A stretch of 43,165 nucleotides of DNA from a virus. Taxonomy: Duplodnaviria; Heunggongvirae; Uroviricota; Caudoviricetes. Positions 5,772 through 43,165 of this stretch are shown piece after piece. The notes beneath the pieces are model-generated. The model was not told where the DNA came from, searched no databases, and was given only the letters and a program-made list of their open reading frames with translations. The stretch covers positions 1 through 43,165 of IMG/VR virus record IMGVR_UViG_2541047954_000002. The stretch is one strand, 5' to 3'. The stretch's first letter is position 1; every line of letters starts with the position of its first letter. A program made the position numbers and the translations under genes.

Positions 5772-6155
5772 TTAGAAGGGAATTGAATCGTCGTATTCAG
5801 GATGATTTTGATGATTGCTACTTTGCTGCTGTTGGCTGTTTCCTGAAGTTGCAAATCCAATCTTTGCATTCAGTAATTCAAGAGTGATTGATTGACCATT
5901 TTGCCCCTGATAAACATCAACCCTGATGTTTTCTCCGGTAATTTCTACAATGCCACCTTCAACAAGAACACTACGGTAGTAATCCGCTTGCGCTCCCGGC
6001 TTGGCAAATACAACGGCGCTGTAGTTTGTCCGTTCTTTCTTTTTTGTCTGGCGATCGTAATACTGAACGCCAGCACGGATGTTGAATCCGATATTTTCCC
6101 CGGCCTGAAACTCTCTTGCGGGCTTGTTTAGTCTTACAGTAATCGAATGTGCCAT
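5772..6155 (-). CDS. SSB-like protein with C-terminal acidic tail (ends ...EYDDSIPF)
   Basis: C-terminal DDxIPF-type tail characteristic of bacterial/phage SSBs; Gln-rich linker; immediately downstream of erf with a TAATG overlap. Confidence 0.5.
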   Translation of the reverse strand: MAHSITVRLNKPAREFQAGENIGFNIRAGVQYYDRQTKKKERTNYSAVVFAKPGAQADYYRSVLVEGGIVEITGENIRVDVYQGQNGQSITLELLNAKIGFATSGNSQQQQSSNHQNHPEYDDSIPF

Positions 6156-6760
6156 TAAGCAGCCGCTCCTTCTAATTCATCTCGTCTGATGTTGTAAACG
6201 TCCTGCGCTTTGTGCTGCTCCGGTGTGCCTTCGAGCATCTTCCACGCTTTGGCGAACGCCTGTTTAAGCTCTTCTACGGTGTTTTTCTGCATTGCTGCGT
6301 CAGTGAATGCTTTTAGAACCTGTTCAGGTGTAGGTGATGGTTTTGATTGCTTTACTGCTGCGTTCTGCTGATGTTTATGCTCGTCTGTATCTGCATCTTT
6401 CGCATCATCAATGCCGAACAAACCATTGAGGCAATACTTGCGTGCATAAGAGCTTGTAGCGCCCGTAACTTGTGCAGAATCCATTCCTTTCTTGCTTTCT
6501 TCCTCTCGTGCAAGAGCGGTTGCCGTATGACTGTTTTCGCCATCGGTAATAGTTGCCGTGGCTTTCACGTAATACCGATCACCAATCAACACAACTTCAT
6601 CGCTGATTGATAAAAACAGGCCATTCAGTAACGGCTTAACGCCTTCAAGAATGTCTTCGCAGCTTCTGTATTTATATTTGCCGAATGAGTTGTACTGATT
6701 CTTTGGCGCGTTCAGATTCTCCTGAATAGCTGCCAGTCTTGCGTAAAATTCTTTGCTCAT
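6155..6760 (-). CDS. erf: Erf-family single-strand annealing recombinase (P22 Erf-like)
   Basis: MSKEFYARLAAIQENLNAPKNQYNSFGKYKYRSCEDILEGVKPLL... closely matches remembered P22 Erf; start set at the MSKEF methionine. Confidence 0.85.
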   Translation of the reverse strand: MSKEFYARLAAIQENLNAPKNQYNSFGKYKYRSCEDILEGVKPLLNGLFLSISDEVVLIGDRYYVKATATITDGENSHTATALAREEESKKGMDSAQVTGATSSYARKYCLNGLFGIDDAKDADTDEHKHQQNAAVKQSKPSPTPEQVLKAFTDAAMQKNTVEELKQAFAKAWKMLEGTPEQHKAQDVYNIRRDELEGAAA

Positions 6761-6861
6761 ATGATTGTTCTCAGAATGGACACGGCCCAAGGAAATAACG
6801 CTGATTTAATACTTCGACTCGTGACAAATTAAGGCATACCCGCATTCCTTCGCGGTCGCCA

Positions 6862-7020
6862 TTATGGCGATACCAGAGAGCTTTCTGCGTGTACATGCGT
6901 CTCTGTAACTTGCTCTCCTTCACTGTGGTTGCAAGTGACATGAATATCTCCTTCGTTACCGATTAAATCTTTCATCTGACGAATGAATTCTTCGTCTGAC
7001 CAGTTATCTGTAAAACTCAT
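6862..7020 (-). CDS. Small ORF (52 aa) between kil and erf, possible Arf-like accessory protein
   Basis: Hand-translated ORF MSFTDNWSDEEFIRQMKDLIGNEG...; start overlaps the kil stop (ATGA); position matches arf in P22-like early regions. Confidence 0.3.
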   Translation of the reverse strand: MSFTDNWSDEEFIRQMKDLIGNEGDIHVTCNHSEGEQVTETHVHAESSLVSP

Positions 7021-7169
7021 TTCCTGCGATACCACGGAAGGTTGATAGCTGATTTCATCGCTTTATTTGCTTCAAACCACATTTTGGAATCACCAATAAA
7101 TCTGGCTATTACTGCTTTGTTTTGTGCAGCACGAAGCATCTGATGATTTATGGCTATTTCATTGCGCAT
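7017..7169 (-). CDS. kil: Kil-like host cell division inhibitory peptide, 50 aa
   Basis: Hand-translated MRNEIAINHQMLRAAQNKAVIARFIGDSKMWFEANKAMKSAINLPWYRRK; the IA-FIGD-KM motif resembles lambda Kil; located immediately downstream of cIII as in lambda. Confidence 0.55.
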   Translation of the reverse strand: MRNEIAINHQMLRAAQNKAVIARFIGDSKMWFEANKAMKSAINLPWYRRK

Positions 7170-7285
7170 AATAAGACCTCAACTCTTTTCCATCCGTCAC
7201 GTAATTTACGGGTGATTCGTTCAAGTAAAGATTCATTTAATTGGAAGGCACCCATGCGAGCGCCTCCCGCGATTGCGTAAATCAT
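7154..7285 (-). CDS. cIII: CIII-like protein (FtsH inhibitor), 43 aa
   Basis: Hand-translated MIYAIAGGARMGAFQLNESLLERITRKLRDGWKR...; the ESLLERITRKLRDGWKR core is as I remember lambda CIII. Confidence 0.75.
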   Translation of the reverse strand: MIYAIAGGARMGAFQLNESLLERITRKLRDGWKRVEVLLCAMK

Positions 7286-7309
7286 GGGTGGTTCCTTATG
7301 TTGGTTTTA

Positions 7310-8278
7310 TTAGTAGGTTATTTTTGTTGCGAATACTTCGCCTTTTACGATGGCTGTTATGATATTTTTAGCAACATCTTCTGATGCGCCAACCTTGATA
7401 AGGTCAGCAAGTATTTTGTTATTTACTTCTTTCCGGTGAGCTTTATCCTTTGCTCTACACTCTTCTTCTTCCTTGATTCTTTTTTCTTCTGCTATTCTGG
7501 CTTGCTCTTTTGCTTCAGCCTCGCGCCGGATTCGTTCAGCCTCCTCCTGTGCTTTTCGGCGTTCTGCTTCAATTGCCGCCTGCTTTTCTCTTTCAGCTCG
7601 TTCTGCTGCCTCTTTTGCTTCGCGCTGTGCTCGTTGCTCGGCTTCAATGCGTTCACGCTCTGCACGTTCCGCTGCGGCCTTAGCTTCTGCTTCTCGCCTT
7701 GCTGCTGCTTCAATTTCGGCTTTTGCCTTTGCTTCGGCTTCTGCTCTGGCTTTCTCTTCAGCTTCTCTTTTTAAGCGTTCTTCATGCTCTCGCTTTTCCT
7801 GCTCAGCTTTGAGTCTTGCCTCTTCTCTTTGGCGGTCAAATTCGCGATCCATCAAAATCGCTATTTCATGGTCAGACTCAATTTGCTTTGCGAGAGCTTC
7901 AGCTGCTGCCTTAGCTTCTTCTTCGGCTTTAATCCGTGCCTGTTCATCCTCATAATCAGTAAGAGGCTGGCGTGCCTTGGCTTTCAGCTCATCAAGTCGA
8001 TCACGCACTGTCTTGCGGTTGGCATCAATTAGCTTTGGAATTTCCTTCAGTTCAGCAACAAGGTCTTTGCCAAGACCATCGAGATATGTTTTCGTCTGCG
8101 CAACTTTATACGCCAGAGAAGCGATCTCCTTTCTTCCCTTTGCCGTTGTTATATCAGGCACAAAGGACATAACTTCACGTTCAACCTTTTGGAGAATTTC
8201 TTCAATCTGGTCGGCAGACTGAAATACAGTCATTGCATTTGCTTTTTCAATAACAACTAAATCTGTTACTTCACTCAT
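7310..8278 (-). CDS. Highly charged coiled-coil protein with E/A/R/K-rich low-complexity core, 322 aa
   Basis: Long ORF, GGAGGA SD before the ATG at 8278; central ~150 aa is an almost pure Glu/Ala/Arg/Lys repeat. Confidence 0.6.
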   Translation of the reverse strand: MSEVTDLVVIEKANAMTVFQSADQIEEILQKVEREVMSFVPDITTAKGRKEIASLAYKVAQTKTYLDGLGKDLVAELKEIPKLIDANRKTVRDRLDELKAKARQPLTDYEDEQARIKAEEEAKAAAEALAKQIESDHEIAILMDREFDRQREEARLKAEQEKREHEERLKREAEEKARAEAEAKAKAEIEAAARREAEAKAAAERAERERIEAEQRAQREAKEAAERAEREKQAAIEAERRKAQEEAERIRREAEAKEQARIAEEKRIKEEEECRAKDKAHRKEVNNKILADLIKVGASEDVAKNIITAIVKGEVFATKITY

Positions 8279-41344: not shown

Positions 41345-41359
41345 GCTTTTTTATACTAA
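41345..41359. repeat. attR core (GCTTTTTTATACTAA) followed by bacterial B' sequence
   Basis: Identical 15-bp core to attL; followed by CTTGAGCGAAACGGGAAGG, as remembered for attB. Confidence 0.9.
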
Positions 41360-41449: not shown

Positions 41450-41926
41450 TTAACTAAACATCGCAGTAATCGAGGCACTCGCCAGAGAGTGAAAATGAAC
41501 GTTAAACCCGACCATCGCGCCGCTGGCACCTTCATCGACATCAATACGTTCTACATCCAGCGCGTGAACGGTAAAAATGTAGCGATGGGTTTCGCCTTTC
41601 GGCGGCGCTGCGCCATCGTACCCGGTTTTACCAAAGTCGGTACGCGTCTGCAAAACGCCGTCTGGCATAGCTACCAGACCAGAGCCAAACCCTTGCGGTA
41701 ATACGCGGGTATCAGCGGGTAAATTAACAACTACCCAGTGCCACCAGCCGGAGCCGGTTGGCGCATCCGGGTCATAGCAGGTGACAACAAAACTTTTCGT
41801 TCCCACAGGAACATCATCCCACGCCAGATGCGGTGAAATATTATCGCCATCGTAACCCATGCCGTTAAAGACATGACGATGCGGCAGCTTATCGCCATCG
41901 CGCAGATCGTTACTGATGAGTTTCAT
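41450..41926 (-). CDS. ybhB: Host YbhB (PEBP/Raf-kinase-inhibitor-like family protein), 158 aa
   Basis: MKLISNDLRDGDKLPHRHVFNGMGYDGDNISPHLAWDDVP... recognised as E. coli YbhB, the attB-flanking gene on the bio side. Confidence 0.9.
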   Translation of the reverse strand: MKLISNDLRDGDKLPHRHVFNGMGYDGDNISPHLAWDDVPVGTKSFVVTCYDPDAPTGSGWWHWVVVNLPADTRVLPQGFGSGLVAMPDGVLQTRTDFGKTGYDGAAPPKGETHRYIFTVHALDVERIDVDEGASGAMVGFNVHFHSLASASITAMFS

Positions 41927-42034
41927 TAGAATGCCTCCGGGAAACCTCGGCCTTCAGACCGGGGAGGAAAGGAGGCGGTTTTCCGACTAACTGTACTTTG
42001 CATAATCACATTTTCCTCTTTAGTATGTGAACAC

Positions 42035-43165
42035 ATGAAACGCGCATATAAATACCGGTTTTACCCGACAACTGAGCAGGCTGAGCTTTTAGCTCAGACG
42101 TTTGGCTGTGTGCGCTTCGTCTACAATTCCATCCTTCGTTGGCGTACCGATGCGTACTACGAGCGAAAAGAAAAGATCGGTTATCTACAGGCCAACGCTC
42201 GCCTTACGGCGCTCAAAAAAGAGCCTGAATACATATGGCTGAATGATGTTTCCTGCGTTCCCCTCCAGCAGTCGTTGCGCCACCAACAAGCCGCCTTTGC
42301 TAACTTCTTTGCCGGACGAGCTGCATATCCGGCTTTCAAAAGCAAACGGCACAAACAGGTGGCTGAGTTCACTGCCAGCGCGTTTAAACACCGTGACGGC
42401 GAGTTGTATATAGCAAAGAGCAAGTCGCCGCTGGATGTTCGCTGGAGTCGAGAATTACCATCTGCGCCGTCAACCGTTACCATTTCCAGAGATAGCGCTG
42501 GCAGGTACTTTGTTTCCTGCCTGTGTGAGTTTGAACCTGTATCAATGCCTGTTACCGCTAAAACGGTCGGCATTGATGTGGGCTTAAAAGATTTATTCGT
42601 CACCGATACCGGATTCAAAACCGACAATCCCCGCCACACCGCTAAATATGCGAAGCGATTAACGCTGCTACAGCGACGTTTAAGCAGGAAGCAAAAAGGC
42701 TCAAGAAACCGTATTAAAGCCCGCTTAAAGGTCGCCCGACTCCACGCGAAAATCGCCGATTGCCGGATGGACAATCTGCACAAGTTGTCCCGCAAACTGA
42801 TTAACGAAAACCAAGTTGTTTGCGTCGAATCCCTCAAGGTGAAAAACATGATCCGCAACCCGAAGCTGTCTAAAGCAATAGCTGACGCAGGCTGGAGCGA
42901 ACTTGTTCGCCAGCTCCAGTACAAAGGCAAATGGGCCGGGCGGTCAGTGGTCGCCATTGACCAGTATTTACCGTCCTCAAAATGCTGTAGTTGCTGCGGT
43001 TTCACCATGCAAAAAATGCCTCTTAATGTTCGTAAATGGCACTGCCCTGAATGCGGCGCAGACCATGATCGCGACATTAACGCGGCACGTAATATTAAAG
43101 CTGCCGGGCTGGCAGTGTTAGCCCACGGAGAGCCTGTAAACCCTGAATCGCAGCACGCGGCTTAG
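42035..43165 (+). CDS. tnpB: IS200/IS605-family TnpB (OrfB) RNA-guided nuclease-type protein, 376 aa, no tnpA
   Basis: RuvC-like motifs (GIDVGLKDL, ESLKVKNM) and C-terminal zinc finger CCSCCG...CPECG...RDINAARNI; stop codon at the window end; no upstream Y1-transposase gene. Confidence 0.85.
   Translation: MKRAYKYRFYPTTEQAELLAQTFGCVRFVYNSILRWRTDAYYERKEKIGYLQANARLTALKKEPEYIWLNDVSCVPLQQSLRHQQAAFANFFAGRAAYPAFKSKRHKQVAEFTASAFKHRDGELYIAKSKSPLDVRWSRELPSAPSTVTISRDSAGRYFVSCLCEFEPVSMPVTAKTVGIDVGLKDLFVTDTGFKTDNPRHTAKYAKRLTLLQRRLSRKQKGSRNRIKARLKVARLHAKIADCRMDNLHKLSRKLINENQVVCVESLKVKNMIRNPKLSKAIADAGWSELVRQLQYKGKWAGRSVVAIDQYLPSSKCCSCCGFTMQKMPLNVRKWHCPECGADHDRDINAARNIKAAGLAVLAHGEPVNPESQHAA

Follow-up and report, generated by a model that had tools for sequence, protein, structure and literature searches.

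A probable tnpB-only insertion sequence of the IS200/IS605 family abuts the ybhB start codon in Escherichia coli

The DNA analysed here (referred to below as the window) is a 43,165-nucleotide stretch from the IMG/VR virus record IMGVR_UViG_2541047954_000002, and its right-hand end carries two divergently oriented genes. On the minus strand lies ybhB (41450..41926), which encodes a PEBP-family 'kinase inhibitor' and was recognised as a 158-aa ORF with a Pfam PBP match (E 1e-41) that RefSeq annotates as ybhB in both CFT073 and K-12. On the plus strand lies tnpB (42035..43165), the TAG stop codon of which makes up the final three bases of the window. The initial annotation of this DNA had put the start of tnpB at 109 bp from that of ybhB and had seen no tnpA gene between the two; in good agreement, 108 bp separate the divergent start codons and this gap holds no ORF of at least 40 aa. 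Left of ybhB, at 41345-41359, we read the λ-type att core GCTTTTTTATACTAA, which we take to be that of phage λ itself. This position puts the prophage at attB between ybhC and ybhB, and therefore makes ybhB and the tnpB element host DNA that lies outside the prophage. The right edge of the window is a provirus-prediction boundary at a gene end, ~1.8 kb beyond attR.

Its location might suggest that tnpB is a conserved chromosomal gene of the core bio region or cargo of the lambdoid prophage: it adjoins the prophage and falls within an IMG/VR-style provirus window, and 18 IMG/VR proviral contigs (L128-L145) end, just like the window, exactly at the tnpB stop. However, apart from the position of the att core, CFT073 has the gene order ybhC-ybhB-tnpB-bioA with no prophage at attB, and in K-12, where ybhB is followed directly by bioA, the gene is absent, as it is from ~94% of genomes. 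We regard this reading as refuted and assign it a negligible probability.

The 376-aa product of tnpB was characterised from the ORF list with Pfam, NCBIfam and an alignment to ISDra2 TnpB. Three Pfam families match above their cut-offs, PF12323 (HTH_OrfB_IS605), PF01385 (OrfB_IS605) and PF07282 (Cas12f1-like_TNB). The NCBIfam model NF040570 (guided_TnpB) scores 369.5 bits against a cut-off of 100, and NF038281 (IS200_TnpB) scores 400 bits, slightly below its cut-off of 425 and higher than the IS607_TnpB model. ISDra2 TnpB (PDB 8bf8/8exa) aligns over residues 3-369 (E 9e-75). In this alignment the RuvC triad is intact, with D181, E265 and D347 (codons at 42575-42577, 42827-42829 and 43073-43075, plus strand) matching ISDra2 D191, E278 and D361, and the four cysteines C318, C321, C337 and C340 (codons starting at 42986, 42995, 43043 and 43052, plus strand) matching the ISDra2 zinc finger. 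The protein thus has the HTH, OrfB_IS605 (RuvC) and zinc-ribbon architecture of a TnpB, and its description as a full-length TnpB with RuvC motifs and a zinc finger stands; RefSeq likewise labels it an InsQ/TnpB-family RNA-guided endonuclease. Judging from its sequence, it would be a nuclease that cleaves double-stranded DNA in an RNA-guided, TAM-dependent manner. The start of tnpB (42000-42037) has no Shine-Dalgarno motif, there is a -10-like TAGTAT whose end is 8 nt upstream of the ATG, and relatives share the motif GTGAAnnnATG at their tnpB start, which together suggest that the tnpB mRNA is leaderless or nearly so.

The element to which tnpB belongs measures 1291 bp and extends from window position 41927 to 52 bp past the right edge of the window (6528-7818 of locus L001). 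The initial annotation had proposed extending the sequence to the right and comparing it with the uninterrupted ybhB-bioA region of other strains, and both steps proved informative: in CFT073 the right end is reached 52 bp past the tnpB stop, as a hairpin followed by GTCAA, and the empty site of K-12 defines the insertion. With slashes marking the junctions, the K-12 empty site reads TTTCAT/GAACCC and the CFT073 filled site TTTCAT/TAGAATG…GTCAA/GAGCCC, with no target duplication; at greater length, ...GAGTTTCAT/GAACCCTCCTTTC... in K-12 corresponds to ...GAGTTTCAT/TAGAATGCCTCC…GGGGAGCCGTCAA/GAGCCCTCCTTTC... in CFT073. Since the element has a K-12-like GAA right flank in a second E. coli lineage and the exact GAG empty site exists in six genomes, the third flank base is a host polymorphism and not part of the element. 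One partial 'empty site' match, H112, was considered as a scar allele and rejected, as this genome simply carries the element. Homology to relatives breaks off at element bases 1-2 and 1291; the plasmid and chromosomal copies (79-90% DNA identity) align from base 2-7 to base 1291-1292 but not beyond. Between the two ends tnpB is the sole ORF, with 108 bp from the left end to its ATG and 52 bp from its stop to the right end.

Directly left of the element stands TTCAT (41922..41926, plus strand), identified from the K-12 and CFT073 junctions and from the left flanks of relatives. These flanks end in TCAT, extended to TTCAT in about half of them, and TCAT or TTCAT is found left of every copy with this left-end type except L004 and L147. 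We infer that TTCAT is the TAM of the system. Insertion 3' of a specific 4-5-nt target, lack of a target duplication and a precise empty site are all as in the IS200/IS605 family.

The left end (41927..42034, plus strand), at which homology to the relatives begins, comprises an 18-nt leader, a subterminal hairpin and the tnpB promoter region. The hairpin, CCTCGGCCTTCAGACCGGGG (41945..41964, plus strand), is conserved in the family, has a T·G mismatch at stem position 3 and is the presumptive TnpA binding site. A palindrome spanning 41934-41967 had been suggested as a possible left-end hairpin; 41945-41964 is its core, and the suggestion is borne out by the conserved position, by compensating changes in the relatives L006, L023, L026 and L061 and by the match to the right-end hairpin. 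The left end of relatives starts with CAGAATGCCTCCGGGAAA, followed by the hairpin consensus CCTCGGCC-TTCA-GGCCGGGG with its T·G mismatch; the right-end hairpin, CCTCGCCC-TTTA-GGGCGGGG, is of the same type and is followed by AGCAGTCAA. Stems covary across the relatives, e.g. GGTC/GACC, GCCC/GGGC and GTCC/GGAC. The hairpins begin 18 nt after the left terminus and end 9 nt before the right terminus (GTCAA), so that the element has imperfect subterminal hairpins at both ends and not terminal inverted repeats, a layout which we take to be the IS608/ISDra2 architecture. DNA folding of the single left- and right-end hairpins was not better than that of shuffled sequences (z -0.5 to -1.8; left -0.48), and it is therefore family conservation that supports them. 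The E. coli copy departs from the family consensus by substitutions in both hairpins and by T in place of C as its first base; in the left hairpin a G-to-A change weakens the top of the stem, and the L121/L125 allele keeps the consensus G. Given these substitutions, the E. coli copy may be immobile even when TnpA is supplied.

An ωRNA scaffold overlapping the 3' end of tnpB is strongly supported by comparative folding. We aligned the last 190 nt of 27 relatives and derived a consensus fold with RNAalifold, which contains 38 pairs in 8 helices, with compensatory double changes in 21 of the 38. In the alignment 94.1% of cells are paired, versus 36-49% when the partners are slid by 1-3 columns, and none of 500 shuffles reached the observed values; furthermore, every helix can pair in the E. 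coli sequence. The 5' part of the scaffold lies at 43067..43165 (plus strand); it includes helix 3, a stem-loop at 43100-43116, and at 43122-43134 the 5' strand of a k-turn-like stem, the 3' strand of which lies past the window edge. As read from CFT073, the scaffold runs on for 52 nt past the window to ...GCCGTCAA and is followed by the guide GAGCCCTCCTTTCTTG; the right-end hairpin, too, is located past the right edge. The expectation that the guide RNA would be encoded beyond this edge thus holds for the guide and for the final 52 nt of the scaffold, but ~100 nt of the scaffold lie inside the window. After GTCAA the sequence is different at each locus of the relatives, and a structured ωRNA overlapping both the 3' end of tnpB and the right end, with a flank-derived guide next to it, is the arrangement of a TnpB system.

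An Rfam scan of the extended locus returned no family at threshold, only a chance snoRNA match and a sub-threshold match to RAGATH-18 (RF03064; L001 7723-7788) that covers the full model length at 29 bits against a gathering threshold of 44.9 (E 0.006) and amounts to resemblance, not membership. The guide RNAs, or reRNAs, of IS607 TnpBs have RAGATH-18 as their core (PMC11061315). The likeness lies in the stem CCCAC-GGAG…UGAA-GUGGG, which resembles the k-turn/E-loop core of RAGATH-18; the IS607 reRNA differs in being fully intergenic, whereas the RNA described here overlaps coding sequence.

Among known elements of solved structure, ISDra2 of Deinococcus radiodurans gives the best natural match. 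It shares the triad and the zinc finger, an ωRNA overlapping the 3' part of tnpB as well as the right end, hairpin ends and the lack of target duplication, and its 5-nt TAM, TTGAT, likewise stands 5' of the left end where TTCAT stands here. It differs in having its own tnpA and a TnpB that is 32 aa longer; moreover, the TAM described here includes CAT and its targets coincide with start codons, unlike those of ISDra2. IS609 of E. coli K-12 (insQ/ydcM with the tnpA pseudogene yncK; L127 4162-5909) belongs to the same IS200/IS605 family, its hairpins, CCCCATCC-TTCA-GGGCGGGG, are very similar, and its right end also finishes with GTCAA, of which TCAA provides the TGA stop of ydcO (5906-7081). However, its InsQ is 34% identical, its target is TTAT, its tnpA is decayed and it occupies another locus. 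Sense-overlapping ncRNAs have been described at the 3' ends of IS1341-type genes (PMC4615843). The present element shares such an ncRNA position with the IS1341 group, together with the order of left end, tnpB and right end and the lack of tnpA, and its membership in that group is by organisation only.

We conclude that the feature is, with high probability, a non-autonomous insertion sequence of the IS200/IS605 family and of the tnpB-only IS1341 type. The first of the two readings offered by the initial annotation, an IS1341-like minimal element, therefore agrees with the sharp ends, the K-12 empty site, the absence of a duplication and the lack of tnpA in the enterobacterial relatives. The second, an exapted RNA-guided nuclease, fares poorly in view of the intact triad and ends, the patchy distribution and the frameshifted alleles described below.

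Among 5426 complete E. coli genomes, 342 (~6%) carry ybhB together with the element, which is single-copy in all of them. The site is ybhB in each carrier inspected, i.e. in the 30 full-query matches listed and in the annotated loci. The window sequence is 100% identical to that of CFT073, Nissle 1917, ATCC 25922, LF82 and others, and copies are 99.8-100% identical across several E. coli lineages. The tnpB ORF is intact in 333 genomes at 99% identity or more, which could, as far as the sequences tell, reflect recent common ancestry and not selection. One protein record, WP_000817269.1, recurs in CFT073, in the O170:H18 strain CFIAFB20120266 and in the O2:H6 strain PG20180057. In one lineage (23CRST027, ECNB21-M121; ~1.2% divergence) a 13-bp and a 1-bp deletion frameshift tnpB. 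In strain 23CRST027 (L121 1024-1500) both ybhB, which has an internal stop, and the frameshifted tnpB are annotated as pseudogenes. The initial annotation had named, as the observation that would speak against an insertion, a conserved gene present in all related strains without IS ends; what is found is presence in 342 of 5426 genomes, IS ends, and relatives at other loci. Patchy presence and a frameshifted lineage together indicate that tnpB is neither a conserved or exapted gene nor prophage cargo.

This distribution, together with the ends, bears on whether TnpB or its guide RNA has been domesticated and is kept by selection for a host role, such as TldR-like regulation of bioA-ybhB, or for defence. 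A single-copy element at a fixed locus, 99.8-100% identical across several lineages, with no tnpA and with a guide complementary to the former 5' UTR of ybhB, speaks in favour of such a role. TldRs are nuclease-dead, however, and here both the D/E/D triad and the two transposon ends are intact, the latter being common to mobile relatives at ~40 other sites. Furthermore, only 6% of genomes carry the element, the deletions in one lineage have disrupted tnpB (with ybhB a pseudogene too in one strain), and the genomic target beside the right end has no adjacent TAM and is therefore not bindable in cis. We consider domestication very unlikely.

The same observations can be read as those of an inert relic, the ends of which are too degenerate and the TnpB and ωRNA of which are unexpressed or inactive, so that it persists by drift. 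Consistent with this are the substitutions in both hairpins relative to the family consensus, the lack of a cognate TnpA, second copy or mini-element in E. coli, and the decay in one lineage. Against it, most carriers retain a full-length ORF with all catalytic residues, as illustrated by the recurrence of one protein record in three strains, and all ωRNA helices remain pairable in E. coli. An inert relic is improbable, if slightly less so than a domesticated TnpB, and we return to the non-autonomous insertion sequence as our preferred reading.

The relatives of the element occupy dozens of other loci and share its ends. No tnpA was found beside the enterobacterial relatives, in which the left end always lies ~110 bp from the tnpB ATG, and among all ORFs in the retrieved loci a motif screen picked out no more than two Y1-like ones, each from a distant Endozoicomonas locus. 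In a low-stringency search with the left-end consensus, the left end was found once per carrier genome, the only other matches being 19 weak ones on plasmids; E. coli is therefore without a partner element or miniature copy. Several further observations concern the wider family. TnpBs that are 62-88% identical ride on different left ends and use the targets TTAC or TTAT and not TCAT (L009-L011, L015-L020, L024, L070-L073; L031-L076), implying that target specificity has switched repeatedly among close relatives. Endozoicomonas genomes contain more than 12 copies of related elements. The first 50 kb of the 74.5-kb Yersinia plasmid NZ_MT039227.1 hold one full copy and solo right-end fragments. 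Part of the element is matched by 626 Klebsiella plasmid records, and in 387 plasmid records overall the best match has 90-95% identity; these probably represent a widespread truncated or related copy. A lambdoid phage tail gene has a 47-nt miniature at its start codon, in the context TTTCAT/…/ACATTCC (L117 3366-3412; also L150, L164-L167, L176 and L184). This miniature consists of the outermost 18 nt of the left end, a single hairpin and the outermost 9 nt of the right end. In other phages (L152-L158 and L175) that same tail-gene site is occupied by the full 1291-bp element, and the miniature is the scar of an in-situ deletion from hairpin to hairpin or else a PATE-like mini-element.

At ybhB, the insertion is precisely placed. 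ATGAA, the first five bases of ybhB, is the target in reverse complement, and the element, which abuts the start codon (the reverse complement of 41924-41926), therefore lies exactly between that codon and the native Shine-Dalgarno sequence. In CFT073 the latter, AAGGAGGG, is now found right of the insertion, 1.3 kb away. The element is oriented antisense to the bioA-ybhB operon, and the minus strand of its left end reads CCCGGAGGCATTCTA/ATG, with a GGAGG (41934..41938, minus strand) 7 nt upstream of the ybhB ATG. With its ATG retained, ybhB is presumably translated with the GGAGG of the left end as a replacement ribosome-binding site; its transcription may stem from PbioA read-through or from a promoter that faces outward. 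Promoter and terminator scans of the element returned matches at the frequency expected from shuffled sequences. One such match, an outward minus-strand TTCACA-18-GATTAT, is thus at chance level and, like a TTGCAT-17-TAGTAT upstream of tnpB that was read by eye, is speculation.

As TCAT is the reverse complement of ATGA, we examined the sequence left of each copy for start codons. Of 25 independent insertions in chromosomes or metagenomes, 18 have as their CAT the ATG of a long ORF (120-779 aa), and in 17 of these 18 at most one other possible in-frame start precedes it. For the 15 whose right end was read, there is an in-frame stop no more than 28 codons upstream, often with a Shine-Dalgarno motif. 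According to Pfam the genes at these start codons are real and unrelated to each other, with N-terminal domains that begin at profile positions 1-3. On PGAP-annotated plasmids, insertions are found at the starts of traX, trbC, traW and a phage tail U gene. In three plasmid cases the stop of the upstream gene is a TGA within the right-end TCAA, which means that these insertions had hit ATGA start/stop overlaps. Phage-borne relatives add seven further sites at start codons and two elsewhere, so that in total about 29 of 39 independent insertions are at host start codons; in four of the ten exceptions a stop codon still directly abuts the ATG. For the null expectation we used 393 kb of comparable sequence with crude ORF calls, in which start codons make up 3% of all TCAT sites and 14% of the TCAT sites that do not interrupt an ORF. 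Even under the 14% null, P is ~1e-10 for the first 25 sites. The cousins with TTAC or TTAT targets show an analogous stop-codon overlap in 3 of 12 cases. The multi-copy Endozoicomonas relatives, which have TTAC or TTAT targets, were tried on the start-codon question and were uninformative.

The bias can be accounted for in two ways. Survivorship in gene-dense DNA is a plausible explanation: insertions at such sites preserve both neighbours, and imprecise deletion of the element would be counter-selected. However, the Zobellella/Pseudomonas left-end type lacks a Shine-Dalgarno motif and yet is found at start codons. Alternatively, this tnpB-only lineage may have become adapted to, or be mechanistically targeted at, start codons and ATGA overlaps within operons, to which we give somewhat less than even odds. 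The ingredients of adaptation are the TCAT target that corresponds to ATGA, the left-end GGAGG 7 nt from the ATG and the right-end TCAA that supplies a TGA. If adaptation or targeting were true, the element would be able to sit in dense operons, plasmid tra regions and phage tail modules with neither neighbour destroyed, and would also be shielded against imprecise deletion.

By analogy with ISDra2 and the Geobacillus elements, TnpB and the ωRNA would cut TTCAT followed by the guide sequence, a target that re-forms only where the element has been lost or is missing, and cutting of the empty allele would favour keeping the element or copying it back by recombination. In the homing model of Meers et al. 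(bioRxiv 10.1101/2023.03.14.532601), TnpB cuts the donor joint, i.e. the TAM with the right-end flank, and the element is retained. That work gives TTCAT as the TAM of the ISGst5 IscB, identical to the presumptive TAM described here, and presents the Geobacillus ISGst elements, unlike ours, as autonomous or TnpA-assisted; a term search of it for 'start codon' found no mention of such an association. Transposition would require a Y1 TnpA acting in trans, and E. coli appears to have none with matching ends; as a consequence, this copy would behave as a fixed, vertically inherited and slowly decaying insertion. It would effectively be a fixed passenger in a subset of (mostly B2) E. coli lineages.

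The element itself is ordinary, and its protein is already called TnpB in RefSeq; the element is now fully delimited. A modest additional interest lies in the precise insertion between Shine-Dalgarno and ATG and in the family-wide association with start codons. Searches of the literature for TnpB in connection with ybhB found nothing relevant, and those for start-codon targeting by IS200/IS605, IS1341 or TnpB elements found no description, although the pattern may be known elsewhere. The work provides a delimited native E. coli TnpB/ωRNA pair, with its ends, TAM, guide and empty site, in the widely used strains Nissle 1917, CFT073 and ATCC 25922, where genome engineering might have to reckon with RNA-guided nuclease activity of endogenous origin. 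With the bioA-ybhB operon split and the ybhB ribosome-binding site swapped, ybhB expression may be changed in the carrier lineages. Finally, if the start-codon association reflects targeting or adaptation, it would be a new aspect of how 'peel-and-paste' single-strand elements coexist with compact genomes.
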